64,000 nt of DNA from Myxococcaceae bacterium (lineage in GTDB: Bacteria > Myxococcota_A > Polyangia > Polyangiales > Ga0077539). Location of the stretch: contig SCUS01000095.1 of NCBI GenBank assembly GCA_004297725.1, positions 28,065-92,064 of the forward strand, in the 5' to 3' direction. The translations under genes were made by a program, and so were the position numbers. Under the pieces are notes generated by a model. It ran no database searches. It was not told the DNA's origin and saw only the letters and a list, made by a program, of their open reading frames with translations. This document shows, piece after piece, positions 4,323-63,277 of the stretch. Position 1 is the first letter of the stretch, and each line of letters starts with the position of its first letter.

Positions 4323-5927
<1,605 letters not shown>

Positions 5928-7761: not shown

Positions 7762-8036
7762 CAGCCCTCCTCCGAGTCGCCCAGCGACGCGAGCACCCCG
7801 AGGGCCACCGGGTGCAACGGAGGACGCGGCGTGATGGGAAGCTGCGGGGCCTTGCCCGTCGCCTTCGCCAGCACGCGGGCGCAGGCCACCACGCACTGCT
7901 TTCCCTGGCACCACCCGGTGCCGAAGCCCGTGTAGCGCTTCACCGACTCGATGTCCTGGTGGCCCGCCTCCAGCGCCTCCATCACCTCGTCGAGCGTGAC
8001 GTCCTCGCAGCGGCACAGCATCGCCTTCGCGGTCAT
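7761..8036 (-). CDS. small BFD-like [2Fe-2S]-binding protein
   Basis: 91 aa, MTAKAMLCRCEDVTLDEVMEALEAGHQDIESVKRYTGFGTGWCQGKQC. This is the CxC...CxxxxC spacing typical of BFD-like 2Fe-2S domains. It has ATGA overlaps with both neighbours (8033-8036 and 7761-7763). Confidence 0.7.
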   Translation of the reverse strand: MTAKAMLCRCEDVTLDEVMEALEAGHQDIESVKRYTGFGTGWCQGKQCVVACARVLAKATGKAPQLPITPRPPLHPVALGVLASLGDSEEG

Positions 8037-9349
8037 CGCCCCTCCCCTCGCAGGTCGCGCAGCGCCCGGGCGCCCACCGCCGCGCCGTCCCTCGCCCTCG
8101 CGTCGTGGTCGATTCTCCCCCAGCGCAGCGAGCCCGCCACGTACACGCCCTCGCGCGAGGTCGCCCCCTCCGCGTCGCTCTCCGGCACGAAGCACTGCCG
8201 CCCGTCGCTCCAGAGCACGCTCGCCCCGGCCTGCCCCGCCAGCTCGTAGGCCGCGCCCAGCTCCCCGTCGACCACCAGCGCGTCGCACTTCACGGTCCAC
8301 TCGCGGCCGCCCTCGCGCAGCGTCGCGCCCTTGACCGCGCGGCCGCCCAGCGCCTCGACCACCGCGGCGCCAGGGGAGTGCGTCACCCGCTCGCCGAGCG
8401 TCGCCGCGATGGAGCGGGCGAAGAGCCCGTCGCCCACCAGCGCCACGCGCTCACCGGCCAGCACGCCGTGGCAGAGCGCCAGCGCGAAGGCCCTCGCGGT
8501 GAACACCCCGGGCACGTCGCTCTGCGGGAAGACCCCCACGGACTCTCGCGCCCCGGTGGCGAACACCCTCACCCTCGCGCGCACCGTCACCCCCCTGCCC
8601 TCGTGGATCACCAGGGTCTCGTCGTCGTAGGTGGCGACCGCGCCCGAGCCGTAGCGCACCATCACCGCGGGGTCGCAGCCGGGGTACGCGCCGTCGTCCA
8701 ACGGGTCGTCGCGTCGCATCCCTCCGGGGCCTTCGCGCTCGTCGACGAGCATCACTCGGGCTCCGCCTCGGGCGAGGGCGTTGGCGCAGGCGACGCCGGA
8801 GGTGCCGGCGCCGACCACGAGGGCGTCGACGTCGAGGATCTCCGAGCGGGGGAAGGTGGCGATCGCGTCGGGGAGGGTGCCGAGCCCTGCCATGCGCCGC
8901 GCGAAGACCTGCATGGTGCGGTTGAGGGCGCCGCCGAACTTCACCAGCAGGTGGTGGTGGTCGAGGTGCCTGGGGAAGAACCAGTCGGTCACCCGCAGCA
9001 CGTCGATTCCCGCCGTGGGGAAGGCGTTCTGCGACTGCGCCACCATGCCTGCGCGGGCGGGCGTCTGGCAGGACATCACGTTGGGCACGCCGTCGACGCG
9101 CACGAGGCAGCCGTCGCAGTCGCCGCGGAGGCACATGGCGCCGCGGGGCCGGTGGTACTTCACGCTGCGCGCGAGGGTGAGCTGGCCCGCGGCGAGGAGC
9201 GACACCGCGAGGGGCTCACCCTCGACGGCGGCGACCGGGGCGCCGTCGTGCTCGACGGTGACGCGCCCGGAGGAGCCGAGGGCGGCGAGGCGTCGTGCGA
9301 GCGGAGAGCCTGGAGGGAGGTCGGTGGGAAGGATCCGTCGCGGCGCCAT
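8033..9349 (-). CDS. fused 2Fe-2S (SoxA-N/HcnA-like) + FAD/NAD(P)-binding oxidoreductase (HcnB/OoxA-like)
   Basis: Internal ATG at 9349. The N-terminus VTVEHDGAPV...SVKYHRPRGAMCLRGDCDGCLVRVDGVPNVMSCQT resembles the Fer2_4 domain. It is followed by DALVVGAGTSGVACANALARGG (GxGxxG). Confidence 0.75.
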   Translation of the reverse strand: MAPRRILPTDLPPGSPLARRLAALGSSGRVTVEHDGAPVAAVEGEPLAVSLLAAGQLTLARSVKYHRPRGAMCLRGDCDGCLVRVDGVPNVMSCQTPARAGMVAQSQNAFPTAGIDVLRVTDWFFPRHLDHHHLLVKFGGALNRTMQVFARRMAGLGTLPDAIATFPRSEILDVDALVVGAGTSGVACANALARGGARVMLVDEREGPGGMRRDDPLDDGAYPGCDPAVMVRYGSGAVATYDDETLVIHEGRGVTVRARVRVFATGARESVGVFPQSDVPGVFTARAFALALCHGVLAGERVALVGDGLFARSIAATLGERVTHSPGAAVVEALGGRAVKGATLREGGREWTVKCDALVVDGELGAAYELAGQAGASVLWSDGRQCFVPESDAEGATSREGVYVAGSLRWGRIDHDARARDGAAVGARALRDLRGEGR

Positions 9350-9405
9350 AGGGGTGAACGTGCTGCTCCGCGCGGGAGGATATACCTCAGCCGCGCGGCG
9401 CGACT

Positions 9406-10053
9406 CTAGGGTTCGTGCGGGAGGGGATGGATCGCGAAGCGCCGGGCGGCCTCGCAGCGTGGCGAGTCGAGCACGACGTGCACGGAGTCGGGGAGCCAGC
9501 CCATGCGCTGCAGGGCGCGGTGGGCGTCGGGCGATGGCAGGAAGAGGTCGAGGTGGTGGCCGTTGATGGCGCCGCCGCGGTCGACGGCGACGAAGCAGCC
9601 GTCGTGGGTCGATCCGTCGGGGAGCGGCATGCCGATGAGCTCCGGGAGCTCGACGGTGCTGCCGAGGGGGACGAAGCGCGGGTCGACGGCGAGGGAGCGG
9701 TAGGGGACGAGCGCGAAGCCCGCGACGCCGATGCCGAAGGGGTAGAGCGCGGGGTCGACCTCGATGTAGCAGGAGCGCCCCTCGCGCCGGGAGGACCAGT
9801 TGAAGAGCCTGCCGTCCCAGGAGCGGCCGGTGCCCTCCATGGCGAGGGCCTCGGCGAAGCGGCTGGTGCACCAGGTGAGCGTGCGGCCCTGCGGGTCGAG
9901 CACGCGGGCGGCCTGGCGGTCGTCGGGCCGGGGGGTCTCGTGGGCGATCCAGTAGCGGGTGAGCTGGAAGGCGCCGGGGACGGCGGTCTGCGCGCGCGCG
10001 ACGGCGGGCGCGAGGGAGAGCGCGAGCGCGGCGACGAGGAGGCGGGGGAGCAT
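9406..10053 (-). CDS. secreted 3D-domain (MltA/RlpA-like DPBB) protein
   Basis: Start at ATG 10053 gives MLPRLLVAALALSLAPAVARA (signal peptide). The C-terminal CFVAVDRGGAINGHHLDLFL is a 3D-domain hallmark. Confidence 0.7.
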   Translation of the reverse strand: MLPRLLVAALALSLAPAVARAQTAVPGAFQLTRYWIAHETPRPDDRQAARVLDPQGRTLTWCTSRFAEALAMEGTGRSWDGRLFNWSSRREGRSCYIEVDPALYPFGIGVAGFALVPYRSLAVDPRFVPLGSTVELPELIGMPLPDGSTHDGCFVAVDRGGAINGHHLDLFLPSPDAHRALQRMGWLPDSVHVVLDSPRCEAARRFAIHPLPHEP

Positions 10054-49473: not shown

Positions 49474-50196
49474 TTGTTAGCCACCACGCACGCCAGCACG
49501 CTCATCGGCCTCGACTCGCACCCGGTGCAGGTCGAGGTCGACATCGCCCGGGGACTGCCCGCCTTCGACCTCGTCGGGCTCGCGGAGGTGGCCGTCCGCG
49601 AGTCCCGCACCCGCGTCCGCGCCGCCATGGAGCAGGCGGGCTACCTCTTTCCGCTGCGGAGGGTGACGGTCAACCTCGCGCCCGCGGACGTGAAGAAGGC
49701 CGGGACGGGCTTCGACCTCGCCATCGCGATCGCCACACTCGCGGCCGCGGGGGACTGCCCCTCCGCGGGGCTCGATGGCTGGCTGATGCTCGGGGAGCTG
49801 TCCCTCACCGGCAGCGTGCGCCCGGTGCGGGGAATACTCCCCCAGGTACTCGCGGCGAGGGACCGGGGGATGCGGGGGGCGATCGTTCCGCTGGAGAACG
49901 GGGCCGAGGCGGCGGTGGTGGAGGGCATCGAGGTGCGCGGCGCGGAGACCCTCCGAGGGGTGTGCGAGTTTCTCTGCGGCCGGGAGGAACTCCCCCTCAT
50001 CGAGCGCACCCGGGTGGTGGACCTCGCCACCGGGGACGCGCTGGAGGTGCTCGACCTGCTGGACGTCCGAGGCCAGTCGCACGCCAAGCGAGCCCTGGAG
50101 ATCGCCGCGGCGGGAGGGCACAACGTGCTGGTGTTATGGCGGGAAACACACCCGTTGCGCACGGGCCCCCACCCAGGCGCGCGACCTCTTATCTGA
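49474..50196 (+). pseudogene. comM: comM/yifB (Mg-chelatase-like AAA+ competence protein), 5' fragment truncated at the Walker-A box by island insertion
   Basis: The N-terminal Lon-like domain is intact (HPVQVEVDIARGLPAFDLVGLAEVAVRESRTRV...VNLAPADVKKAGTGFDLAIAIA...DVRGQSHAKRALEIAAAGGHNVLV). At about 50,134 the expected GPPGxGKT is replaced by LWRETHPLRTGPHPGARPLI-stop. G+C falls to the right of this point. Confidence 0.75.
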
Positions 50197-50202
50197 CGAA
50201 GG

Positions 50203-50709
50203 CTACGGCGTGAACCGCCGGTATCGCGGGTCGAGGGTGAAGGGTCGGCCGGGCAACACCTTCACCTTCGCGAAGTCAGGGTGAAGCGGGTTCAGGAGGA
50301 TGTTGTACTCGTCGGGCACGACGACGGACGGAACCTTCAACGCGACTGAACGCACTGATCGCACCCACTCAACGCCGAGCTCAGCCAACGCCTCGGGTGC
50401 GGGGACGTCCCTCCAGTTGGCGGGCAGCGACGACCTGTCGAACGTCTCCACATCCACATCCGCAAGATCGGCGGGCGTGACGACGAGGTCGTCCGGTAGC
50501 AGCCCGGGGTCCGTATGCACCAGGAGCTCCAGAGCAGCCAGCGATCGCGTGCCGCTCGTATAGACGACCGGGACCCCTTTCTGGTTCCATCGCCCTCCGA
50601 CGATCTTCGCGCCGTAGCCCGAGTACGAGGTGCTCTCCCAGCGCTTCATACAGATCCGGAAAACTTCGGTCGAGCTCATGATGACATTTGGCTTAGCGCT
50701 CGATGCCAT
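50203..50709 (-). CDS. RES-domain toxin (NAD+-targeting RES/MbcT family)
   Basis: GAKIVGGRWNQKGVPVVYTSGTRSLAALELLVH...KVPSVVVPDEYNILLNP carries the R...E...S signature spacing. The start is ATG 50709 or 50679; the track ORF start at 50757 is probably too early. Confidence 0.75.
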   Translation of the reverse strand: MASSAKPNVIMSSTEVFRICMKRWESTSYSGYGAKIVGGRWNQKGVPVVYTSGTRSLAALELLVHTDPGLLPDDLVVTPADLADVDVETFDRSSLPANWRDVPAPEALAELGVEWVRSVRSVALKVPSVVVPDEYNILLNPLHPDFAKVKVLPGRPFTLDPRYRRFTP

Positions 50710-50862
50710 GTGGCGCAAACGCGTCGATGGTGGATTTCTTCTTGCTGGTCCCCACACTCACCCAGCCACACCCACATCACCCGCGCCCTAGGGATGGCGT
50801 GACCAAAAAGGTCGGGAACTGCTAAGACGCGAGTCGAGGAATCGCAAGGTGCCAGCGTGCAT

Positions 50863-50931: not shown

Positions 50932-51657
50932 TTGCCCGCCCTACGCTACGGACGGGCTGTGGACCTCTCTCCTCCCCTCGCACCTGTAGGTGAACGGATT
51001 GCAACCCTCCTTCAAGGTGCGGACAAGACTCCCGCGTGGCTGGCCGAAAAAACGGGACTTCAGCGCTCGACGGTGACCCGTGCCATCAATGGCAATCGTC
51101 AACCTTCGTCCGACACGCTTCAAGCCATTGCGACGGTACTCGGCCTGACCGTCCCTCAACTTGTTGCCGGAACAGATGCGGCGGGTCGGGTGAACGAGGT
51201 CGAACAACTTGTACCTCATCATCTCTACGACAACGCAGTTCACCAAATTATCGCCTACGAGTCCAAGGCGAACGAGTATCTCACCCGTATCCGCAACCTC
51301 GAAGAGACTCTTGAGCAAGAACGCGCTCGTCGACGCGTGGCACGTGGGGAGGCGGAGAAGAGTGAGCGAGAGGCTGACCAGGCACGCCTTGTTCGAGACG
51401 ACGCGCTGCGCAAGGCAAGACACTTTGAGCAGGACGCCATTCGTTACCGCAACGGCCTCGAAAAGGCCGTTAAGGACGTTGAACGTCTCAATCAGCAATT
51501 GAGAGAGCTCGGTGCGGCGGTCGAGGCGACCCGCCGGACAGGTCAGGTCGGGACAATCCTCGCGGGGGTTGCCGCTGCGGTCTCCATCGCGACCTATCTC
51601 GGAAACGAACCTCTGAACAACCATGCCGATGAAGTTGGCAAAGAGACTGACGGCTGA
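50932..51657 (+). CDS. XRE-family HTH protein with long coiled coil and C-terminal TM anchor
   Basis: The Cro/C1-type HTH reads GERIATLLQGADKTPAWLAEKTGLQRSTVTRAINGNRQPSSDTLQAIATVLGLTVPQL. The coiled coil reads LEETLEQERARRRVARGEAEKSEREADQARL... The TM segment is VGTILAGVAAAVSIATYL. The start is uncertain (TTG 50932 or GTG ~50956). Confidence 0.7.
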   Translation: MPALRYGRAVDLSPPLAPVGERIATLLQGADKTPAWLAEKTGLQRSTVTRAINGNRQPSSDTLQAIATVLGLTVPQLVAGTDAAGRVNEVEQLVPHHLYDNAVHQIIAYESKANEYLTRIRNLEETLEQERARRRVARGEAEKSEREADQARLVRDDALRKARHFEQDAIRYRNGLEKAVKDVERLNQQLRELGAAVEATRRTGQVGTILAGVAAAVSIATYLGNEPLNNHADEVGKETDG

Positions 51658-52093: not shown

Positions 52094-52954
52094 ATGATCT
52101 CACCTCAACGCATCGCTCGACAGTCCGGAAGGATCGTCGCCGGGCTCCTAGCAGGAGTCATCTCGTCGTGGAGTTACATCGAACCGCTGAGCGCGATGGT
52201 GCAATTGCCTGCCGGCTTCATTCGCTGGACGATTCCTGCGCTAGCGATCGCGTATGCCATTTGGCGAATGAGACCGCGGACCCATCTCGAACTTCGAGGA
52301 CCAAACAATCTCCGCGTGCATCTAAGCTTTGGCGACGTGTTTACACAAAAGAATACTGACACTGGCCTTGCGATTCCGACCGATGATTTCTTCCTCACAA
52401 AGAACAAGAAGTTCGTTACCCCAGGCATGTTGATATCACAACTCAAGCAAAAACGCTTCAACAACTCCGACGATTTCGACACAAAGGTTCTTGAGGCCAC
52501 GGAGCCGCTACGGGACCACTTCGATTTTGAGGCAAGAGATTTCCCAAAAGAACTTGAAGGAAGGACGCGTCAATGGCCACTGGGGTCCACCGCTGTCCTG
52601 CAAGTCGACGGAACCTATTACTTCTTCACCGCATCCTGCAAGATTGATCTTCAATCCAGTCCACCCTCAGGACGCGCCACACCTCCCGAGCTGTTTAAAG
52701 CACTTCTGGGGCTGTGGCAGGCGATCACCAAACATCCTAGCGGAAAGCCTGTCGTCGTCCCTCTGTTTGGCGCCGGTCAAACTGGTACCGGCCTACGTCC
52801 CACCGAAGCTCTCCATATCATGCTAGTCTCACTTGTCTGTGCTGCTCGAGCGACGCCGATCTCGGACGAGATTCGCATCGTCATCCACGATAGTCATCAG
52901 AAGCACATCGACCTCGACGACGACGTTCTGAAGGGGATCATGCATGCTGAATAG
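52094..52954 (+). CDS. 2-TM + macro-like domain protein (resembles the TM-Macro form of Thoeris ThsA / DUF6430)
   Basis: Two N-terminal hydrophobic helices are present (RIVAGLLAGVISSWSYI, IRWTIPALAIAYAIW). The segment GLAIPTDDFFLTKNKKFVTPGMLISQL resembles the NDCFD-type motif. GKPVVVPLFGAGQTGTGLRPTEALHIMLVSL resembles the macro-domain P-loop-like glycine-rich motif. The call is from memory and unverified. Confidence 0.55.
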   Translation: MISPQRIARQSGRIVAGLLAGVISSWSYIEPLSAMVQLPAGFIRWTIPALAIAYAIWRMRPRTHLELRGPNNLRVHLSFGDVFTQKNTDTGLAIPTDDFFLTKNKKFVTPGMLISQLKQKRFNNSDDFDTKVLEATEPLRDHFDFEARDFPKELEGRTRQWPLGSTAVLQVDGTYYFFTASCKIDLQSSPPSGRATPPELFKALLGLWQAITKHPSGKPVVVPLFGAGQTGTGLRPTEALHIMLVSLVCAARATPISDEIRIVIHDSHQKHIDLDDDVLKGIMHAE

Positions 52955-53575: not shown

Positions 53576-53893
53576 GTGGAGTACAATGGAACCGATGTCG
53601 CCGCTGCCCGCAAGTCGTGGCTCTTCTTCGGCAGCGACGACCACGCCCAGGCCGCGGCCAACCTCTTCTCGTTGGTGGCCTCCTGCAAGCTCCACGGGCT
53701 CGACCCCGAGAGCTACCTCGCCGAGGTCATCCGGGTGATGCCGTACTGGCCCCGCCAGCGGTACCTCGAGCTCGCCCCCAGGTACTGGGCCGAGACCCGT
53801 GGGCGCCTCGACTCCGGCGAGCTCGCGCGGCCCCTCGGGCACGTGACCGTCCCCGCGCCGCGCACGACGGAAGAGCAGACCGCGACGGACTGA
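53576..53893 (+). pseudogene. IS66-family transposase C-terminal fragment
   Basis: RKSWLFFGSDDHAQAAANLFSLVASCKLHGLDPESYLAEVIRVM matches the conserved IS66 Tnp C-terminal block (RKNWLF.GS...A...SL..T.KLNG.DP..YL). A TAA lies immediately upstream, so the DDE domain is missing. Confidence 0.65.
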
Positions 53894-54179: not shown

Positions 54180-54974
54180 TCAAGACACTTCGATCGTCAG
54201 CCCAACCGCGGAGTGGTCACTCAACTCCAGCCGACGGGGACTATGATCAATGTGACACGACGTCACCTGGGTTCTCAGCGAATCACTGACCATGCAATGG
54301 TCAAGCCTCAACCTGTGCCCATCCGGTCCGACCCAACTCACGTCTGCTCCCTGTGGATTCATCAAGCGATATGCATCACAATAACCAAGAGCGAGAAGAC
54401 CACGGTACAGCCCGGCATCCTCAAGTCCAGGAACAACAATGCCCAATCCAGGCTCTATAATATTGAGATCACCGCAAACAATACATTCAGGATCGGAACT
54501 GCTTACGAGATGCACGAGATCCTGCTGAAACTTCCGTCGGTATGCAAGTCTCTCGGGAGGAGTGTTATACCAACCAGTGGGGGCATAGACGCCCAAGATC
54601 GATACATTGCGCCCTCCTACATTCAACTTGCAACCCTGCAGTCGAGACGAATGAAACTCCTCTGTCTGCTCTAGCCGTTGTGGACTACGACCTCGGACGC
54701 AGAGCGCTGTCGTGAACTTGCCTCCTCGCGGGATGGCGGACAGAACATCGTAGCCAGCCCTTTCAAGCTGTTCGACAAGAAACCTACTCCCCTCGCCATG
54801 GGTGAGTTCCGTCAGCACGAGAACATCCACGCGCTGACTCTCCAGCCAGCGAAGCTGTTCAGCAGCTCGCACACGAGTTGGAGACTGCATATTCCACGCG
54901 AGAATATGCAGACGCTTCGCGCGCGCATCTTCGGCGACAGGCTTTGTACCGAAAAGTGATAGTTGTCGTTGCAT
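54180..54974 (-). CDS. endonuclease/exonuclease/phosphatase (EEP, ExoIII/DNase I-like) family protein
   Basis: Ordered EEP motifs are present: HILAWNMQS, VDVLVLTEL, VSILGVYAP, IVCGDLNI, DAYRLMNP, RLDHCMVS and LSDHSAVGL. An AGGA sits 8 nt before the ATG. The gene is low-GC. Confidence 0.8.
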   Translation of the reverse strand: MQRQLSLFGTKPVAEDARAKRLHILAWNMQSPTRVRAAEQLRWLESQRVDVLVLTELTHGEGSRFLVEQLERAGYDVLSAIPRGGKFTTALCVRGRSPQRLEQTEEFHSSRLQGCKLNVGGRNVSILGVYAPTGWYNTPPERLAYRRKFQQDLVHLVSSSDPECIVCGDLNIIEPGLGIVVPGLEDAGLYRGLLALGYCDAYRLMNPQGADVSWVGPDGHRLRLDHCMVSDSLRTQVTSCHIDHSPRRLELSDHSAVGLTIEVS

Positions 54975-54986
54975 GAGGTATCCTAC

Positions 54987-56024
54987 TTACCTTGCCTGTT
55001 GCAGATGCGCCAGCACTGCAGTGAAAACCCTCGCATACAGAGCCATCCGTCTCGCTATTACGTCCGCGATTCTCTCATTCGAAAGGTCATAACGATAGCG
55101 TCGCGTCGCCGCGCTGTCGGAGACGATGTGGAGATACGAAAAGCCAACGCGAGATTGCTGAGCAGCATCTGCCATGGGGCCAATCTCGGGGTCAACGAAA
55201 CGGGCAACCCTGCCTGCTTCGGCTACCCAGAGGCTACTCTCTTCAAGCACGGAACGAACCGTCTTGTGCGCGCCAAATATCGTACCAGATGCAATAAGAT
55301 CCGAAAAAACGTTGTCCCAAATTACGACGCGCCCATCGGACAGAAAACTACGATCTCCAGATGCGAGGGCGGCGTTCGGAACGTCATCACTCGCTAAAGA
55401 GCCGAGCTTTCCGACATATATTACTTCGACCGCGTTCTTCTCTGCAAGCAGCCTCACAAGTCTTCCAGCTATGTCACCCCATAGGGTGTGCTGGCAGCCA
55501 AGCAATATCTGATCGCCTGTCTCATTCAGAGGTCGCCAAAGAAACTCGCCTGTGGTTCGCCATCCAGATTGCAACCCCATACCAGGGAACATATCAACCT
55601 TGCCCACGACAAAATGTCGACCTACAGGAAACTCACTTCCCATAGATGCTCGGAGTGCGTCGATACAGTTGGTCTCGTCAGGCCACTCGACCAGCACCGG
55701 CACCGGCTTTCCAGTCATGGCGTAGTACGTTGAGAGAACAGACGCGAAGTGAAACAGGTAATCAAACCCAGGAAAACAGTTCACTATCGCAGTATTGTCG
55801 GTCCACGTCAGCGTTGGACGCTTTGAGTTAAAAAGCTTGCCTCGTTTCTCGTTTGCGGACAGACCGATGCTCCTGTCGTAGCTTCCTCGAACCACGATCT
55901 GTCCGGGCCTCTTTCGGCCTTCCGCTAGATCGGAGTGGAGCTTGAGCTCAAGATACCCCAGGAGGGATCTCCCCATGGAGTGCAACTCCGGCGACGTAGT
56001 GATAGGCAAGGGGTATCTCGTCAT
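54987..56024 (-). CDS. PNP/UDP-phosphorylase-fold (nucleosidase-like) protein with unknown N-terminal ~150 aa
   Basis: ILLGCQHTLWGDIAGRLVRLLAEKNAVEVIYVGKLGSL...SGDRSFL resembles the G-x-G...AA...I..G.aGgL...GD core. FVDPEIGPMADAAQQSRVGFSYLHIVSD resembles the vdMEsaA.a.va......l.iRgISD C-terminal motif of MTAN/PNP enzymes. The start overlaps the upstream stop as ATGA (56021-56024). Confidence 0.55.
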   Translation of the reverse strand: MTRYPLPITTSPELHSMGRSLLGYLELKLHSDLAEGRKRPGQIVVRGSYDRSIGLSANEKRGKLFNSKRPTLTWTDNTAIVNCFPGFDYLFHFASVLSTYYAMTGKPVPVLVEWPDETNCIDALRASMGSEFPVGRHFVVGKVDMFPGMGLQSGWRTTGEFLWRPLNETGDQILLGCQHTLWGDIAGRLVRLLAEKNAVEVIYVGKLGSLASDDVPNAALASGDRSFLSDGRVVIWDNVFSDLIASGTIFGAHKTVRSVLEESSLWVAEAGRVARFVDPEIGPMADAAQQSRVGFSYLHIVSDSAATRRYRYDLSNERIADVIARRMALYARVFTAVLAHLQQAR

Positions 56025-57097
56025 GGGTTAGGACGCTTGGGAAAGAATAGCCGATTCTCGCGCCGTGCCCGCATCTCAAGTTCTTCTAGCTCGCTCACGG
56101 CGTAGTCGAAGACAATATCACCTGATCGACAGGCGAGCGTGGGAACAGCGGCTCGCTTGCGAAGGTGACTGTAAAACGCCACAAGCCCTCTTTGGTCGAA
56201 CCGGAAAAAGGAAAAATATGGAAGATCGTCCATTCCGATGACCTCGATCGAGCAACTGCTGTAGCTGTTTGCTAAGCTTGCGAAGTCATTGATCGCTTCT
56301 GTAATCCGTGCTACGGCCTTGCTCTCCGTGAGGCCCTGCCAAGTGGCCATTCTGCGTCGGACTACTTTTTCAGCCGGATCGGGAAGGAGCACCTTGATCG
56401 ATGTGCCACCTCGCTCGCAGAAGTCGCGAATGCGAACGAAGTGATGTGATCGCCAGGTGGGTGATCCTATAAACATCATCTGCAAGGTCGATGCCGAGGA
56501 AAAGTAGTCATCCCAATCAATATCACCGCTTTGGAATGAACGATGTGCCAAAGCTGCGAATGGATCATGTACTATCGAGGCACGGAGCCAGCCCTCGCGC
56601 GGGCTTACTTTGAGAGCGTGCACAACACTAGCAGACACCTTGCCGCCAAGATCTCCTGCATCCTTCCAATGCTTACACATCTTGTCTGAGAGAACTTTCT
56701 TGCGGAACAGGTCCAGACGCCTTCTGCCCTCGTCGGTTTTCTCGGAGTGGCGGCTCGGGATTGATTCGGGGTCTGAGTGCACGAATGACAGCACTGGAAT
56801 ACCCTTTGACCGGGCATAGTCGTATTCCATTTCAGTATAGCCCACTCCACTTGCGTCTGTACTGCCGTAGCGACCAGCAAGAACGAGCACATAATAGTCG
56901 GAGTCATCAATAACACGTCGAATGAGTTCCCACTGACTCTCATTCGACGCGGGGAACAACTCCATTCCCGCTGGAAAGCAGCCTAACTCAAGCAGCGCAT
57001 GCATTACCTGCTGACGTGCCACCTCGAGGTCGGCAAACGTCGAGCTAACAAACACTTGATACCGCTTTTCGAGCATCGTCTTTTCTATACGCGACAT
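56021..57097 (-). CDS. DUF4062 (TIR-like) N-terminal domain protein with C-terminal domain resembling the DUF5919-type module of some XRE regulators
   Basis: YQVFVSSTFADLEVARQQVMHALLELGCFPAGMELFPASNESQWELIRRVIDDSDYYVLVLAGRYGS...GYTEMEYDYARSKGIPVLSF is the DUF4062 pattern as I recall it. The C-terminus shows IKVLLPDPAEKVV...IEVIGMDDLPYFSFFRFDQRGLVAFYSH. Confidence 0.65.
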   Translation of the reverse strand: MSRIEKTMLEKRYQVFVSSTFADLEVARQQVMHALLELGCFPAGMELFPASNESQWELIRRVIDDSDYYVLVLAGRYGSTDASGVGYTEMEYDYARSKGIPVLSFVHSDPESIPSRHSEKTDEGRRRLDLFRKKVLSDKMCKHWKDAGDLGGKVSASVVHALKVSPREGWLRASIVHDPFAALAHRSFQSGDIDWDDYFSSASTLQMMFIGSPTWRSHHFVRIRDFCERGGTSIKVLLPDPAEKVVRRRMATWQGLTESKAVARITEAINDFASLANSYSSCSIEVIGMDDLPYFSFFRFDQRGLVAFYSHLRKRAAVPTLACRSGDIVFDYAVSELEELEMRARRENRLFFPKRPNP

Positions 57098-57483
57098 GAG
57101 TTGCCCTCAAGTGTGTTCGTTATCGAAAGAAACCTGTCAGGAAGTTTGCGAACGAGACCGCTAGCCTGACTAGTGCTGACCGAGTCATGTGACCGATCGG
57201 AATGGAGCGTAAGTGCAGCTAGACCGTCCAGATATCACGAAATTTCCAGGTTGAGAGGCTTGCTTCCGGCACTCAACAACGTGTGTGGACTCTAGGGTCG
57301 CTGATCTCACCTTCCTTGTCCACTTTGGCGTTACGACATGTGCCTTGGCTGTGATATCGCGCCTGATCGCACTAGAACGGCACGCCCGATGCATGATGCA
57401 GTACGGTGTTCCCCAAGGGCAGTGGACACAGGCGGCGATGGGAATCGCTCGCCTGGGAGCTCGGGTAGAACGAGACCAGAGAC

Positions 57484-57876
57484 ATGAGTCGAACGACGAA
57501 CGAGACGCCCCCGCCGGGGCTACCGACGACCGCCGAGAGTGAGGACGTGCGCACGCGCCCCGGCCGCCGCTCGGTCGAGGACCGCCAGGCCGCAGTGCTC
57601 GAGCTGTTCGCGGGCAAGGCCACGATCGACCAGCTCGCCCGCCGCTTCGGGGTCCACCCGGAGACCATCGAGCAATGGCGCACCGAGGCCCTGGCCGGCA
57701 TCCACGAGGCCTTCGCCAGGGGCTCCAAGTCGCCCAAGGAGCGCGAGCTGGAGCGCGAGAACCGCCAGCTCCGCGACGCGGTCACCGAGGGCTCCATCCG
57801 CGAGGCCGTGCTCAAGCGGGAGCTGGAGGCCGCTCGCGGCGCGCGCCCTACACGGCCCGCGAAGTCGCGGCGGTGA
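57484..57876 (+). CDS. IS3-family transposase OrfA (HTH_Tnp_1)
   Basis: RRSVEDRQAAVLELFAGKATIDQLARRFGVHPETIEQWR, followed by a leucine-zipper-like ERENRQLRDAVTEGSIREAVLKRELE. Confidence 0.8.
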   Translation: MSRTTNETPPPGLPTTAESEDVRTRPGRRSVEDRQAAVLELFAGKATIDQLARRFGVHPETIEQWRTEALAGIHEAFARGSKSPKERELERENRQLRDAVTEGSIREAVLKRELEAARGARPTRPAKSRR

Positions 57877-58802
57877 CGCGCGAGACGCCCGCCGGCACCA
57901 TCACGGTCACCGCGCTCTGCGCGATGCTCCGCGTCTCCCGCTCGGGCTACTACGCGGCGCGACGCGCGTGCGAGCACGACCGAGAGGCCGCCGCCACGCC
58001 GTCGGCGACCGAGGAGCGCTCGGCCGAGGCAAGGGACGATCGACCCCCACCCAGGGGTCGACGGCCCGCCGCGTCGGTCGAGCGCGTGGTGGCAGCCCTG
58101 CACGAGGTCATCGCGCGACACCCCGCCTGGGGCGTGCGCAAGGCGTGGGCGACGCTTCGACGCGACGGGCTGGTGGTGGCGCGCAAGCGGGTCTGGGCGC
58201 GGATGAAGCGCGAGGGGCTGCTCTTCCGCTCGTCGCGCGAGGCCGTGGCGTCGCCGCGCGGGCACGTCTGGGTGCCCGAGCCCAATCGGCGGTTCGCGAC
58301 GGACCTGACGATGGTGTGGACGCGGCGCGAGGGGTGGGTGGCGGTGGCGCCGACGATCGACTGCGGGTGCCGCAGCGTGCTGGGGCTGGTGGTGTCCCGG
58401 AGCCAGGAGGCTCGGGTAGTGCTGGCGTCGGTCGATCAGGCGCTGGAGGCGGCATTCAGGGAGCCGTCGGGGGTGCCCGAGGGGGTGGAGCTGCGCACCG
58501 ACCACGGGTCGCAGTACACGGGCGGGGATTGCCGGGGGCTGCTGGGGCGCTGGGGCGTCGAGCAGACCTTCTCGCCGGTAGGCCGACCGACGGGGTACGC
58601 GGTCGTCGAGCGCCTGCACCGCACGCTCAAGGAGGAGGTGATCTGGCTGCAGGACTGGGAGGACGCCGCAGAGGTGGAGCGCGCCATGCGCGCGTGGGTG
58701 CAGACGTACAACGAGGCGCGCCCTCACCAGGCGCTGGGATGGAGAACGCCGTCGGAGTACCGCGCCGAGCGGCTCGGTGGAGGGATCGCCATGGCCGCGT
58801 GA
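57675..58802 (+). CDS. IS3-family transposase OrfB (rve/DDE integrase core); the frame is open from 57675 and is probably expressed as OrfAB by a -1 frameshift around 57.83-57.88 kb
   Basis: ITVTALCAMLRVSRSGYY...NRRFATDLTMVW...VAPTIDCGCRSVLG...LRTDHGSQYTG...FSPVGRPTGYAVVERLHRTLKEE...YNEARPHQALGWRTP shows the D, D, 35, E spacing. The frame is -1 relative to orfA. Confidence 0.8.
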   Translation: MAHRGPGRHPRGLRQGLQVAQGARAGAREPPAPRRGHRGLHPRGRAQAGAGGRSRRAPYTAREVAAVTRETPAGTITVTALCAMLRVSRSGYYAARRACEHDREAAATPSATEERSAEARDDRPPPRGRRPAASVERVVAALHEVIARHPAWGVRKAWATLRRDGLVVARKRVWARMKREGLLFRSSREAVASPRGHVWVPEPNRRFATDLTMVWTRREGWVAVAPTIDCGCRSVLGLVVSRSQEARVVLASVDQALEAAFREPSGVPEGVELRTDHGSQYTGGDCRGLLGRWGVEQTFSPVGRPTGYAVVERLHRTLKEEVIWLQDWEDAAEVERAMRAWVQTYNEARPHQALGWRTPSEYRAERLGGGIAMAA

Positions 58803-59589: not shown

Positions 59590-60069
59590 TCATGCCGCCA
59601 GCGCGACCGGCTCAATGACGACGTCGTTCACTGCCAGTAGTCGTGAGAGCGCCGGGCTCCAGCGATCACTGAACGCCAGGGCCCGCAACTGGAGGACATG
59701 CTCGCCGGTGTCCTAGTGCCAACGCGCGCCGGGCCGCTTCATTCGCACTTCGACGAGACACTTGCATGTCGCCTCCACGTTGCCACTTCCGATGTGTAGA
59801 CCCGCGTCGCGGGCCTGCGCGTAGAGCATCCGCGAGGCGTGATGAGCCAGGTACGTCCGTGCCTCATGCAGCGGGCAGGACGTGTCCTTCGAGGGCGTCG
59901 GGACGTCCCACGACGCGATCTCCGCCGCGATCCGCTCGGCACCGTCGGGACGTTCGAGCAGCAGGGTCTTCCATCGAGTGAGCAACTTCGACCCCTCGGC
60001 CGCGCTCTCCGGGTGGCGGGCCTGGGCCGCGCGGCCGAGCTTCTCCGCCGCGTGCCAGTAGTCCACCAA
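59590..60069 (-). pseudogene. ISKra4-like transposase C-terminal fragment with an in-frame TAG
   Basis: VDYWHAAEKL...SRMLYAQARDAGLHIGSGNVEATCKCLVEVRMKRPGARW, then TAG (59713-59715), then in the same frame LQLRALAFSDRWSPAL... This matches the tail of ISKra4-type transposases as I recall them. No N-terminal part is present. Confidence 0.5.
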
Positions 60070-61312
60070 CTCTCGCCTGGCCCACGATGCACCGGCTGCG
60101 CGAACCCTTCACGCCCAGGCGGGTGATGGACACCGGTCCCGTCTCCAGACCGATGCCGAGACCGAGGGGCTTGGTATCCGGCATCTCGGCGTGGATGATG
60201 TCGAACGCGTCGCGCATCGCGGCCACGCACCAAAGGGCTTCGGACACGGTCTTCACGCGGTCGGTCGTCGCCGCGCCCTCGGCGAGCACGCCCTGCAGGC
60301 AGTCGCCGATGTACCGGACCTTCTTACCGCCGAAGTCCTGCAGCAAGTCGCGGAGTTCCTTGCGGATCACGTGCAGCGCGCGCACCGCGCTGCCGGCCTT
60401 GTCGGTCCCGGCCCGGTCGGCCACGAACTTCGTGAACCCGTCGACGTCCGCCATGATCGCGGCGGCCTCGATGCGCCGCGATGCGCCGGGTGAAAGCGCG
60501 TCGACGTCGAGGTCCGAGAGCGGCGGCGTCGGCCGGGTGAAGACGAAGTCCGAGATCGGGTTCTCCTTCACCTCGTCGCGCCACTGCTTGAGCATCTTGT
60601 CGAGGTCGAGCGTGAGGCCCGACTTCGTCACGCACTTGGAGATCTGGTCGGCCGTCAGGACCACGCTCGAGGGGGTCTTGGTCTCGAACTCCTTGCCCAG
60701 CGCGGCCCGGGCGACCGCGCCGAGATAGATGCCGTCGCTCGTCCCGCCGAGGAGCTTGGCCGCGTGGTTGGCAGGGTTCCCGAGAAAGAGGAGCTCGCGG
60801 TCGCCGCGCGTCCCGTTGCGCACCGCGAGCGCCACCCCGGACTCGATGCCGACGCGCACGCGGGCGTCTGCGAGCTCCTCATGAAGGTCGTCGGCCAGGG
60901 CGACGAGCTTCCGGAGGGAGTCCGCCACCGTTATGGCCACCGCAACGCGCTTGGCCTCGTCGTCGTAGGGCTTGTAGGTGATCAGGTGGGTGCGGTGGTT
61001 CTGCGCGTCGACGCGGTAGACGTCCGTGACGGAAAGAACCGCGGTGTGGAGCACGCGCTGGAAGATGTGGAGGTAGCGCAGGAGCCGCCTGTGCGAGCGC
61101 TCGGACTCCGTCTTGTCGGAGTCGAGGAGCTGGTCGGCGTTCACGATGTCGATGTAGGTGTGGACCCCGTCGACCCGGTACGCCTTCGTGAGCGGGATCG
61201 AGACCGTCGCTAGGTCGATCTCCCGGGTGAGGTCGACGACCTCGACGGAAGGAAGCGCCTTGAGTGCATCGCGGACTCGTGACTCACTGATTGAACGCTT
61301 CCACGCTGCCAT
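60070..61312 (-). pseudogene. tandem class III nucleotidyl cyclase-homology (CHD) protein, 3' end replaced by the IS fragment
   Basis: The second domain shows AAIMADVDGFTKFV (metal-binding Asp motif), VRYIGDCLQGVL and LGLGIGLETGPVSITRLG. The first domain is degenerate (HTYIDIVNADQLL, VRVGIESGVALAVRNG...FLGNPANHAAKL). After ...SRSRCIVG the track ORF (to 59864) reads wrong-frame through the transposase fragment, so the G..VN.AAR block of domain 2 is missing. Confidence 0.6.
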
Positions 61313-61819: not shown

Positions 61820-63277
61820 TCACAGCGTCGGGTCTCCGGTTAGTAGGAGGACGAAAGAGGCATCGCCGGGCAACGGCGGCGCATCGCGCGTACTTCCACC
61901 ATCGCCGCCCATGCCGGGGTCCGGGAGCAGGTTCTCCTCGAATTCGAACGCGAGCACCCCATCCGCGTCGGAGCGAACCAGATCACCGGTGGCCGGACTC
62001 GTCAGGCGTCCCCGACCGATCACCACGCGAACTTCAGTGTTCGCGAGCGGGAGGTGTCGGCCGTCCTGAAGCGTGCCGTCCAGGCGGACGACCACGCGCT
62101 GCGTATCACGGAGAAGCGTTCGGGAGATCAATGTCCGCTCGACATGGACGACGCGCCAGGGCGAGAGCTCGATGGTGCCGCTCGCCCGTTCGCCGCTCGG
62201 GGGAGTAACGGACCAGGTAATGGGTCTCGCGGGACCGCTCCAACCGAAGGCCACTTCGAGACTCGACGGGGCGGGACATTCGCCGCTGGGAGCACGAGCG
62301 AGGACCGGTGCCGACCCGCCCGGAGGGCCCGTGACACTACCGGCCGATGCGACCACCATCACGCTCGCGGGCGGCGCCCAGTTTGAGCAGAATGTGACGA
62401 CTGTTCGAGGCTGGAGGTTATCGATGCCGAGCAACCGTACCGAGCGCACGGCGCCTTGCCCTGGCGAAGTCTGGACGAAGAGCGTGGACCACGGACCCGA
62501 GGCCACGCGTGCTCGAACCAGCCCGAGGCCCCCATCGTGGGAGGCAAGCGCGCGATCGAATCGAGACGGATCGGAGCCGGGCAGCAGATCGAATGCGTCT
62601 TCGGACAACGCAGGGGCGGCCAGATCGAGTGTCCCCATCGCGGCGACCTCCACCCGGTGTGCACCCGTGGTCATCGGCGTCGGAGGAACCGTGACGCGTA
62701 CGCCGAGCGGCCCGGTCGTCCCAGCCACGAGCCCCCCTAGTCCGCACCGGATTCCTGCATCTTCCGGAGCGCACTCACTCGCAGCGGGGTCCGGGTTGTC
62801 GACCCCCGAATCGGCCGCGATCTCAGCCGCGCAGGCCTGATCGCGGCTCCCCCGGCAGAGCGTAAGCGTCGGTTGAACGGCCTCCACGTCCACCTGTTGG
62901 GACCATCGGTCGCTACCGACAGAGACCGAGAGACGAGCCGTGCCGCTCATGTTGGGCATGGGCACGAGGACATCGATCGCCGACTGGCCCGGAGACACGC
63001 GGAACGTCCGGGTCCAAGAGGGCGCCACATCCGCCGGTCCCATCGCCCCCGGATTGGTTAGGTCAACAAGAAGCGGGACATCGGCAGCACGCACCGCGAC
63101 GGCGACATGGAGATGGAGGCCAGGCCAGCGCCAGCGCCACCGCGTGACACCGGCATCTCCCTCCATAAGGCGCACCGAAAAGGAGCCCTCTTCGACAGCT
63201 GGGTGTGCGACCTCGTCGCACCCCAGGAATGACAGACCCAGAGCGAGCGGCATGGCGAGACGGGACATCGGTCTCAT
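61820..63277 (-). CDS. hypothetical lipoprotein (island cargo)
   Basis: MRPMSRLAMPLALGLSFLGC lipobox. 485 aa, beta-rich composition, no domain recognised. Confidence 0.55.
   Translation of the reverse strand: MRPMSRLAMPLALGLSFLGCDEVAHPAVEEGSFSVRLMEGDAGVTRWRWRWPGLHLHVAVAVRAADVPLLVDLTNPGAMGPADVAPSWTRTFRVSPGQSAIDVLVPMPNMSGTARLSVSVGSDRWSQQVDVEAVQPTLTLCRGSRDQACAAEIAADSGVDNPDPAASECAPEDAGIRCGLGGLVAGTTGPLGVRVTVPPTPMTTGAHRVEVAAMGTLDLAAPALSEDAFDLLPGSDPSRFDRALASHDGGLGLVRARVASGPWSTLFVQTSPGQGAVRSVRLLGIDNLQPRTVVTFCSNWAPPASVMVVASAGSVTGPPGGSAPVLARAPSGECPAPSSLEVAFGWSGPARPITWSVTPPSGERASGTIELSPWRVVHVERTLISRTLLRDTQRVVVRLDGTLQDGRHLPLANTEVRVVIGRGRLTSPATGDLVRSDADGVLAFEFEENLLPDPGMGGDGGSTRDAPPLPGDASFVLLLTGDPTL

Follow-up and report, generated by a model that had tools for sequence, protein, structure and literature searches.

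A modular cassette of a DUF4062 protein, a PNP-fold enzyme and an ExoIII-like enzyme is a candidate abortive-infection system in a myxobacterial defense island

Results

Organization and base composition of the cassette

The stretch of DNA analyzed here (the window) comprises 64,000 nucleotides (nt) of contig SCUS01000095.1 from a Myxococcaceae bacterium (assembly GCA_004297725.1, positions 28,065 to 92,064) and harbors, on its minus strand, a compact cassette of three genes which we consider a candidate defense system. The first gene (56021-57097, minus) encodes protein 1 in an open reading frame (ORF) of 358 amino acids (aa), the second (54987-56024, minus) protein 2 with 345 aa and the third (54180-54974, minus) protein 3 with 264 aa. 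An original prediction, made from the letters of this region, had described three co-directional minus-strand ORFs, and these are indeed present; the ATGA at 56021-56024, where the stop of the protein 1 gene overlaps the start of the protein 2 gene, and the 12-nt spacer between the second and third genes (54975-54986, minus; GTAGGATACCTC) with an AGGA ribosome-binding site inside were likewise read directly from the sequence. A low-GC non-coding region lies upstream (57098-57371, minus), which is presumed from sequence and GC profile to be the promoter region of the operon, and a GAGGG sits 7 nt ahead of the protein 1 ATG. The promoter and terminator scan gave 0 promoters and no sigma-70 consensus, a result that is uninformative in a high-GC host, and terminators at chance level.

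The G+C content of the cassette is 53.7% compared to 73.1% over window positions 1-49000, and sliding-window values lie at 0.52-0.56 within the cassette and at 0.70-0.78 in core sequence. The earlier claim of a G+C far below that of the host therefore held (0.537 vs 0.731), with the hand counts of 43-58% within range. All three ORFs are intact, predicted catalytic residues included, and all three proteins are singletons at 90% identity clustering. Altogether, the cassette is a horizontally acquired, operon-like unit of three genes. The functional readings given in the following rest on homology, fold and gene neighborhood.

Protein 1 combines a DUF4062/NIR head with a PLD-like domain

The N-terminal module of protein 1 (aa 1-177; 56567-57097, minus) consists of a DUF4062/NIR head, predicted to be a TIR-like NADase, and a stalk. 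Residues 14-95 match Pfam PF13271 over its full length (E=3e-27, 94.9 bits vs a cut-off of 24.7), the module matches PHROG 15411 (E=1e-76), and aa 9-177 match PDB 10wc, the TIR/DUF4062 chain of KpSwz, with E=2e-46; the PF13271 and 10wc matches bear out the TIR-like DUF4062 proposed before. In the HMMER alignment to 10wc, T88-E89 of protein 1 (YTEME) fall on the FTE of KpSwz, with E89 on E97 (FTEKAF), the catalytic Glu of that protein (10.64898/2026.05.01.722283). Catalytic Glu residues have also been assigned to E87 in Eva01 (10.64898/2026.06.25.731849) and to E98 in Vulcan and E103 in VstA (10.64898/2026.09.04.749371). The Q/W/E motif is kept as Q55-W56-E57. We predict Glu89 as the catalytic residue of protein 1, instead of the Glu of GMELF (E46) favored in the original prediction.

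DUF4062 is known as a TIR-like NADase and anti-phage effector from Swarozyc (10.64898/2026.05.01.722283), Evangelion (10.64898/2026.06.25.731849) and NIR/Avs/Vulcan/Vesta (10.64898/2026.09.04.749371), and these studies describe NAD+-depleting defense by DUF4062 effectors combined with variable auxiliary sensors (10.64898/2026.05.01.722283, 10.64898/2026.06.25.731849, 10.64898/2026.09.04.749371). The head had been taken for a sensor or signal generator, a role that does not fit a known NADase effector which is swapped for a TIR domain or two transmembrane helices in relatives. Among the 113 closest DUF4062 homologues, 108 are stand-alone genes with another common C-terminus, and the C-domain of protein 1 was found in three of the 113 that are long enough to compare (the window protein, P0086 and P0097). 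As a separate observation, a 447-aa DUF4062 protein is encoded in a P2-like element of a Salmonella record (NZ_CP051374.1, 3510-4853), where its gene is placed between the virion-morphogenesis and baseplate V genes and may represent defense cargo carried by a prophage.

The remainder of protein 1 (aa 178-358 plus stop; 56021-56566, minus), in the following termed C-domain, is an unannotated domain with phospholipase D (PLD) fold that lacks the HKD motif. It gave no Pfam, PADLOC or NCBIfam match, and the PHROG scan also returned no named system. Its AlphaFold2 model (predicted local distance difference test, pLDDT, 94.8) matched structures of the PLD superfamily in the PDB with Foldseek E-values of 5e-6 to 2e-3. 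The best of these are non-catalytic, namely TrmBL2, the TrmB sugar-binding domain, the pseudo-PLD of FAM83 and MITD1, and PssA, F13, SauUSI, Zucchini and BfiI rank lower. The catalytic signature HxK(x)4D(x)6GSxN has not been kept across 151 sequences: Lys or Arg occurs at +2 in 51%, and Asp and GSxN are unconserved. His311 is kept in 83% of these sequences and replaced by Gln/Asn in about 10%. Near-invariant residues are W195, W215-R216, L238-P239-D240 and Y/F298-R299-F300-D301, and the conserved positions further include H311 and P319.

When 1.84 billion representatives were searched exhaustively with phmmer, 507 clusters (50% identity) fell into the C-domain family at E<=1e-3. The typical member is about 265 aa long and has the C-domain behind two N-terminal transmembrane helices. 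A few proteins feature a CAP12/PycTIR-type TIR head instead (P0205, P0206; PADLOC TIR effector E~1e-44), and the C-domain is also borne by DUF4062 heads. Searching phages and plasmids by tblastn with a transmembrane C-domain protein gave no match.

Protein 2 is a PNP-fold protein of a rare family

Protein 2 carries the motifs GKLGS (205-209), FVDPE (276-280) and HIVSD (299-303) and belongs to a rare family of 84 clusters among 5.8 billion proteins, none of them with a Pfam domain in this region. Protein 2 itself has no Pfam match at E<=0.1, PF01048 included, and a fused relative (L024) reaches only 17.7 bits vs the PF01048 cut-off of 25.1, over its C-terminal motifs. Single and profile searches against PDB sequences likewise gave nothing significant, and it was the fold search alone that worked. 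The AlphaFold2 model (pLDDT 94.7) matched structures of purine nucleoside phosphorylase (PNP), MTAP and MTAN in Foldseek (E~1e-8, TM-score about 0.65 on the target), in agreement with the PNP fold proposed in the original prediction. Of 660 PDB matches at E<=1e-3, the top 50 are all PNP, MTAP, MTAN or uridine phosphorylase of the NP-I type (E 6.5e-9-9.4e-8, target-normalized TM-scores 0.38-0.68).

Weak hhalign alignments to MtnN and DeoD of Escherichia coli (E=0.42 and 0.061) place E280 on the ribose-binding Glu174 and D303 on the catalytic Asp197 of MTAN; the same weak alignments set GKLGS on the DeoD phosphate loop RVGSCG, with Tyr203 replacing the phosphate-binding Arg87. About 140 aa extend the protein at its N-terminus and contain an invariant basic loop (K60, K63, N66, R69), which probably binds phosphate; the substrate of protein 2 would then be a nucleotide rather than a nucleoside. 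No match of protein 2 was obtained by tblastn in phages.

The wider family offers further hints. Every fetched locus was scanned with profile hidden Markov models (HMMs) for the three parts, and among 125 loci with a protein 2 homologue the C-domain occurs in 11 (about 9%) and an endonuclease/exonuclease/phosphatase (EEP) enzyme, the type represented by protein 3, in eight. Other contexts are N-terminal NUDIX fusions (16), CYTH neighbors (about 22), DUF2797 neighbors or fusions (about 18), thymidylate-kinase-like P-loop neighbors (about 25) and fusions to Ppx/GppA and DUF952 (3). A cluster of the order QueD-QueE-FolE-hyp272-protein 2 homologue-thymidylate-kinase-like-DUF2797-S-adenosylmethionine methyltransferase-NUDIX is present on two Streptomyces plasmids (L145, NZ_CP107821.1, 2292-9098; L146, NZ_CP108712.1) and in at least 12 soil-metagenome loci (L094, L107, L108, L110, L115, L123, L127, L131, L133-L135, L137). 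Four Streptomyces plasmids have a protein 2 homologue, and the annotation was inspected for two. This cluster looks like an undescribed pathway for 7-deazapurine nucleotides or nucleosides, in which the PNP-fold enzyme replaces the usual phosphoribosyltransferase; literature searches on the 7-deazapurine cluster and on DUF2797 found no relevant paper.

As the family contexts are mainly nucleotide-processing and 7-deazaguanine clusters, protein 2 is probably a nucleotide-processing enzyme recruited into defense. The original prediction had cited the Cap17 and DtcC effectors in connection with the PNP fold; protein 2 is not of that type, as it matches neither their PADLOC models nor PF01048, and the location of most protein 2 relatives in such clusters disfavors the role of a plain nucleotide-depletion effector.

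Several further homologues are noted as observations in their own right. Homologues are fused to NUDIX in L024, L028, L033 and L035 and to Ppx/GppA and DUF952 in L022, L025 and L026, and archaeal forms of 605 aa have a DUF2797-like N-terminal domain (L027, L032, L036, L038). The fused homologues are often found beside CYTH and P-loop kinase genes, their hosts being bacteria of the candidate phyla radiation, DPANN-type archaea and gut Firmicutes. A C-terminally truncated homologue lies between insertion sequence (IS) elements in AP014952.1 (KOJKO3_p1.100, 4971-5861; hhalign probability 99.6%). Its annotation as "RHS repeat-associated core" protein had raised the option that a domain resembling protein 2 forms the tip of an Rhs toxin, which we rejected: the protein has no RHS part, and the annotation is apparently wrong. 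A full-length copy of this homologue is found on the Klebsiella pneumoniae plasmid NZ_CP055107.1, together with a DMT transporter, NUDIX and a DegT aminotransferase. Homologues split over frames, either pseudogenes or sequencing frameshifts, occur in L034 (2561-3352), L039 (7989-9037) and L042 (7956-9010). Finally, a protein of 403 aa with 36% identity to protein 2 (P0049) is annotated on a 232-kb contig from the fungus Terfezia claveryi, representing either a transfer to a eukaryote or contamination.

Protein 3 is an ExoIII-like enzyme

Residues 26-254 of protein 3 match Exo_endo_phos PF03372 (E=7e-14, 52.6 bits vs a cut-off of 24.5), as expected from the EEP identity suggested earlier, and the protein aligns end to end with ExoIII of PDB 5j8n (E=5e-11). 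The catalytic set N28, E56, D169, N171, D253 and H254 is complete and invariant among the EEPs linked to protein 2. Scores stay under the Xth equivalog cut-offs (TIGR00195, 74 vs 182.6 bits; TIGR00633, 67 vs 99 bits). Judged from these profiles, protein 3 is a predicted ExoIII-like nuclease/phosphatase and not an Xth orthologue. In the PADLOC, NCBIfam and PHROG scans, neither protein 2, protein 3 nor the C-domain led to a named system. The original prediction was right in naming all three folds, but not in the roles it assigned to them, and it overlooked the C-terminal ~180 aa of protein 1 that define the cassette.

The C-domain and protein 2 form a conserved core with exchangeable heads

The order C-domain protein, protein 2, EEP is found in the window and on three other, unrelated contigs (L045, L052 (=L086) and L057), with 21-65% identity of the parts. 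In the closest relative, L045, the three parts are 65, 61 and 57% identical to those of the window, and the ATGA-type overlap is kept. The trios of L052 and L057 feature a head of two transmembrane helices and share 31-33%, 36-38% and 21-23% identity with the respective parts in the window. A C-domain protein followed by protein 2 without EEP was found in L002 (=L010), L006, L004 (at a contig edge), L046 (=L047), L061, L065 and L083. Here, the heads are transmembrane in L002, L006 and L083 and a PycTIR-type TIR domain in L046 and L061; the TIR head on C-domain proteins corresponds to PF10137 (PADLOC PycTIR E~1e-33). The genes of pairs and trios are translationally coupled or tightly spaced.

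For nine pairs, from loci with 33-54% G+C, the pairwise identities of the C-domain are correlated with those of protein 2 (r=0.85, Mantel p~2e-4), which argues that both are inherited together while the head is exchanged. The conserved core of the cassette is hence the C-domain of protein 1 together with protein 2, a pair present at no fewer than 10 independent loci, and the EEP is an accessory of about 4 in 10 of these. With regard to the trio as a unit, the recurrence of the same order in L045, L052 and L057 agrees with the synteny expected in the original prediction, but the EEP is the third gene in four loci and absent from seven pairs.

C-domain proteins also occur in other settings. In L048, a DUF4062 C-domain protein is encoded alone, without a partner. 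In L049-51, a protein with two transmembrane helices and C-domain has a DnaQ-like 3'-5' exonuclease (DNA_pol_A_exo1, DEDD) as partner and no protein 2, and in L053-56 the C-domain protein stands behind a helix-turn-helix (HTH) protein. As L048 and L049 show, a C-domain protein can stand by itself or beside a different exonuclease, and the proposed sensor-effector is therefore independent of protein 2. Conversely, protein 2 and EEP are found without a C-domain protein in L019 and L027/L032. As a detail of the exonuclease loci, the gene for the 212-aa exonuclease in L049 (5001-6454 for the pair, also in L050 and L051) lies 6 nt behind that of its partner, and the pair is inserted in a proton-antiporter/nuo-like operon with an adjoining PDDEXK_3 gene.

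Several flanks of the related loci contain defense genes and mobile elements, with integrases, a relaxase and IS elements among the neighbors. L057 is flanked by bSEFIR and an Mrr-type enzyme (Mrr/PDC-S02), L052 by a HEPN-RES protein, L061 by a PD-T4-6-like kinase and integrases, and L004 by a retron-type PRTase (PRTase_III-A) and the NADAR protein PDC-M42C. The flanks of L046 hold a TIR effector, a PDC-S60-like metallophosphatase, a relaxase and a coupling protein, and domain calls assign a further flanking gene of L046/L047 to an Eco57I-family restriction-modification enzyme. Directly behind the TIR C-domain protein and protein 2 of L046, at 7279-9737, lie genes for a second PycTIR-type TIR protein of 401 aa, whose C-terminus differs, and for the metallophosphatase, which is calcineurin-like; this may be a separate two-gene system or a stand-in for the EEP.

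The cassette resides in a defense island that interrupts comM

The island had been described in the original prediction as interrupting comM, with an IS66 fragment on the left of the cassette and IS3 on its right, and was found exactly so. The comM gene (49474-50196, plus) is cut at about 50.2 kb, after the ChlI domain and 27 residues of the Mg_chelatase domain, and this break is the insertion point of the island; no 3' part of the gene turned up inside the window. At its left edge, the island carries a RES-domain toxin gene (50203-50757, minus; E=7e-28) and the divergent gene of an HTH_3 protein with a long coiled-coil tail (50932-51657, plus), and no obvious Xre-type antitoxin gene is present directly upstream of the toxin gene. 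A transmembrane and Macro ThsA protein of type II Thoeris follows (52094-52954, plus; ThsA_Macro E=7e-29, PADLOC ThsA2 E=2e-29). A ThsB/TIR gene is absent beside it and a C-terminal IS66 fragment (53576-53893; PF13817, E=2e-10) comes directly after, so that this Thoeris system looks decapitated.

To the right of the cassette, IS3-type orfA/orfB (HTH_Tnp_1, rve) are located at 57484-58802, followed by a PycC Pycsar cyclase (59864-61312, with 59713-60069, minus; PADLOC E=3e-143) that covers model positions 2-407 of 486 only. The cyclase has had its C-terminus replaced, an effector gene is missing behind it, and it was probably disrupted by an IS. Upstream of PycC, an ORF of 485 aa (61820-63277, minus) has no Pfam match; other long ORFs at 61.6-63.9 kb are unannotated, and the island runs on to the window end. 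In summary, the cassette sits among the defense genes ThsA, PycC and RES.

Discussion

Proposed mechanism and alternative explanations

Based on these findings, it is probable that the cassette is a defense or abortive-infection system with protein 1 as its NADase effector. NADase, TIR and membrane heads swap on a constant C-domain, as in CBASS, Pycsar, Thoeris and Metis, and for this reason protein 1 is most likely a sensor-effector, in which we lean towards the C-domain as the sensor. In the explanation we prefer as a whole, which falls just short of an even chance, the cassette is a mobile unit that confers abortive infection in the manner of Metis and Vesta, and proteins 2 and 3 act on a nucleotide-derived ligand. 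The C-domain would bind a nucleotide-derived small molecule or a short product of nucleic-acid degradation that builds up in infection, and ligand binding would free the DUF4062/NIR head to hydrolyze NAD+ and thereby stop the infected cell. Sister systems would couple this sensor to a TIR NADase of the PycTIR type or to a membrane effector with two helices. Protein 2 could act as a purine-type N-glycosidase or phosphorylase, probably on phosphorylated nucleotides, and protein 3 as an ExoIII-like 3'-exonuclease/phosphoesterase.

Regarding the direction of their action, proteins 2 and 3 would most likely break down the ligand present at basal level and thereby restrict the firing of protein 1 to a ligand flood. 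That they clear the ligand rather than make it is a tentative view, favored because the sensor family is far larger and can stand alone, because protein 2 relatives accompany nucleotide-degrading enzymes (NUDIX, CYTH and Ppx/GppA, fused or linked) and because precedents exist in MisB, for which this role has been shown, and in VstB, for which it has been proposed. This direction, the ligand binding of the C-domain and the nature of the ligand we infer; the folds, catalytic residues, synteny, head swap, co-variation and neighboring defense genes are observations.

Several points weigh against this explanation. The independent loci are few, with four trios and about seven pairs, mostly metagenomic, and the defense genes near five of six loci with usable flanks are a count without matched control. 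IS remnants bracket the cassette on both sides. The C-domain adjoins only about 9% of the protein 2 homologues, and the main contexts of that family look metabolic. Both families are known from sequence, fold and context alone, and it is solely the architecture that suggests ligand binding by the C-domain, which may retain residual phosphodiesterase activity, H311 being 83% conserved. Finally, exonucleases yield mononucleotides and do not remove them, and unless the ligand is an oligonucleotide, the pairing with EEP and DEDD enzymes fits the generation of a signal at least equally well.

In line with the latter point, proteins 3 and 2 might, as the main but rather unlikely alternative, use damaged or invading nucleic acid or a nucleotide specific to phages as substrate and produce the molecule sensed by the C-domain, e.g., a free base, a sugar phosphate or a modified nucleotide. 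In that case the enzymes would be required, like the cyclase in CBASS and Pycsar. Two unrelated types of 3'-5' exonuclease, the EEP of the four trios and DNA_pol_A_exo1 of L049-51, have joined the C-domain, and both yield mononucleotides. Protein 2 retains all family-invariant residues and is therefore presumably an active enzyme, it co-evolves tightly with the C-domain, and an enzyme beside a TIR- or transmembrane-headed effector is the layout of a signaling system. Moreover, its relatives reside in biosynthetic 7-deazaguanine clusters, where a PNP-fold enzyme could plausibly form or exchange a glycosidic bond. However, the C-domain effectors of L048 and L053 are accompanied neither by protein 2 nor by another partner enzyme, a protein 2 partner is impossible for most of the 507 clusters, over half of the pairs lack the EEP, and neither protein 2 nor protein 3 has a recognizable phage-sensing domain.

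A further-reaching version of signal generation, which we regard as doubtful, is that the PLD-like C-domain family represents a new class of immune receptors for a purine- or 7-deazapurine-type nucleotide or a short oligonucleotide. The activator would be made by the PNP-fold enzyme and the exonuclease, through digestion of phage or damaged DNA and cleavage of the glycosidic bond, and would thus be a nucleosidase-made messenger. As the protein 2 family is found in QueD/QueE/FolE clusters and many phages carry such nucleotides in their DNA, 7-deazaguanine nucleotides could serve as non-self cue. If true, a messenger generated by a nucleosidase would be a new signaling chemistry in bacterial immunity.

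It is improbable that the three proteins are co-effectors, the version nearest to the original prediction, with protein 1 destroying NAD+, protein 2 cleaving ATP/dATP or other purine nucleotides in the manner of Cap17 and DtcC and protein 3 degrading DNA. In its favor, CBASS and Detocs have proven ATP-nucleosidase effectors with a PNP-fold domain, protein 2 shows this fold and, by weak alignment, carries Glu280 and Asp303 at the ribose-binding and catalytic positions, and the ExoIII-type active site of protein 3 is complete. On the other hand, protein 2 matches neither PADLOC Cap17/DtcC nor PF01048 and has no sensor or receiver domain; unlike a toxic effector, its relatives are fused to NUDIX, Ppx/GppA and DUF2797 and are found in apparently metabolic plasmid clusters without an immunity gene, and protein 3, being a minimal enzyme of the ExoIII-like kind, lacks a regulatory domain.

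Even less credible is that the genes do not form one system, with protein 1 being a self-sufficient protein of the Swarozyc/Evangelion type and proteins 2 and 3 an unrelated pair for nucleotide salvage or modified nucleotides, or that the cassette is an inert, IS-flanked remnant. Single-gene DUF4062 proteins are the rule (108 of the 113 closest homologues stand alone), the DUF4062 C-domain protein of L048 is partnerless, protein 2 and EEP occur without C-domain protein in L019 and L027/L032, and IS fragments do flank the cassette. Yet the ATGA overlap is kept in the closest relative, the same order recurs with different heads in loci of 33-54% GC with significant co-variation, and the three ORFs are intact, as are their catalytic residues.

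The least probable alternative, an active PLD-type nuclease or phosphodiesterase in place of a sensor, which would make the C-domain a second effector or, in the versions with two transmembrane helices, a membrane-lipid-targeting one, can point to nucleases (Zucchini, BfiI, SauUSI) and lipid enzymes (PssA, PLD) among the structural matches, to the 83% conservation of His311 with conserved Arg and Asp residues close by and to cardiolipin synthases, which a PLD-type domain behind two N-terminal transmembrane helices resembles, but the HKD signature is missing (+2 Lys/Arg in 51%, no Asp/GSxN, His replaced by Gln/Asn in ~10%), the domains that match best in structure, TrmB/TrmBL2 and FAM83, are non-catalytic, and two fused effectors without a sensor would be unusual.

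Implications

If confirmed, the cassette would add a defense family that is defined by a sensor-like domain with PLD fold and by an enzyme of the PNP fold which Pfam does not detect. Current defense catalogues contain neither part, which is why scans of the DefenseFinder and PADLOC type miss the family. If true, the clearing of basal ligand would furthermore extend the Metis/Vesta model, in which a nucleotide by-product is sensed and its basal level held down by a co-encoded enzyme, to a third, unrelated protein set. The modularity of the cassette represents a natural experiment, with one sensor combined with NIR, TIR or membrane effectors. The cassette also provides a lead on the function of the orphan C-domain family of about 500 clusters. 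The chemistry of protein 2, in turn, could connect modified-nucleotide metabolism with immunity.

Comparison with known systems

No model of PADLOC-DB v2 matched any of the three cassette proteins, the trio is absent from the papers of 2025-26 on Metis and DUF4062, and literature searches for a system of PNP, EEP and TIR or transmembrane proteins found nothing relevant. With respect to the PADLOC-DB v2 scan and the literature searches, the statement of the original prediction that the trio is not a named system thus stands.

Among the known systems, Vesta resembles the cassette in that a small DUF4062/NIR NADase protein with an uncharacterized, putatively ligand-binding C-terminal domain comes first in an operon with a phosphoesterase-type enzyme. 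VstA consists of NIR/DUF4062 and an uncharacterized C-terminal domain, VstB is an alkaline phosphatase, and the system acts by abortive infection through NAD+ depletion, for which the operon-linked VstB is dispensable (bioRxiv 10.64898/2026.09.04.749371). In contrast, the cassette features a PNP-fold enzyme and an EEP instead of the alkaline phosphatase, for which no Pfam match was obtained in the cassette, and three genes instead of two. Its C-domain also carries TIR and transmembrane heads; the C-domain of VstA (WP_274410426.1) was compared by description only. Two plasmid DUF4062 matches with inspected neighbors were neither of them a Vesta operon.

Metis comprises MisA, a calcineurin-like phosphoesterase (PF00149), or MisC with three transmembrane helices, plus the HAD protein MisB (PF13419) (bioRxiv 10.1101/2025.11.05.686725). 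Its sensor-effector is switched on by m6dAMP released in infection, and the dispensable MisB removes basal ligand (bioRxiv 10.1101/2025.11.05.686725). The shared theme is an NAD+-degrading or transmembrane sensor-effector with a co-encoded nucleotide enzyme and swapped heads. The proteins, however, are unrelated, with no MisA, MisC or MisB domains in the cassette and no PADLOC match for the transmembrane C-domain relatives. An identity of the C-domain protein with MisC was dismissed, given its two transmembrane helices vs three and the lacking PADLOC match.

To Swarozyc and Evangelion, the N-terminal ~170 aa of protein 1 are homologous, with the catalytic Glu and Q/W/E kept and a DUF4062 core combined with a variable auxiliary region; identity to Eva01-type proteins of Staphylococcus aureus plasmids amounts to 36-37%. 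The KpSwz match, however, ends at residue 170 of 326, the auxiliary domain of protein 1 is different, and two coupled genes stand behind it. Consistently, the C-domain HMM gives no match to the C-terminus common to 108 of the 113 close DUF4062 homologues. KpSwz detects the phage portal protein via its own auxiliary region (10.64898/2026.05.01.722283).

Protein 2 shares with Cap17 and DtcC the PNP/NP-I fold, D303 and E280 at the catalytic and ribose-binding positions (by weak alignment) and the defense context. It differs by having neither a PF01048 nor a PADLOC Cap17/DtcC match (E<=0.1), where the Cap17/DtcC clade is delimited through PF01048, by the absence of a fused sensor or receiver domain, by its distinct N-terminal extension with the basic loop and by relatives whose main setting is nucleotide-processing or 7-deazaguanine clusters.

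Pycsar and CBASS have in common with the C-domain proteins the CAP12/PycTIR TIR family and the alternation of TIR or transmembrane heads, but the ligand module here is PLD-like and not a cyclic nucleotide-binding or SAVED domain, and there is no cyclase in the cassette; the PycC of the window, 3 kb off, is a separate truncated system. We also considered protein 1 as the missing ThsB of the window ThsA and rejected it, as protein 1 has no PADLOC ThsB match and is encoded on the opposite strand, 3 kb away past the IS66 fragment; the cassette is kept in other loci without ThsA. Taken together, the cassette is neither Swarozyc, Metis, a Cap17/DtcC system nor Vesta in its present definition, and is probably of the modular sensor-effector kind of abortive-infection system with accessory nucleotide enzymes, and two of its building blocks are previously undescribed.

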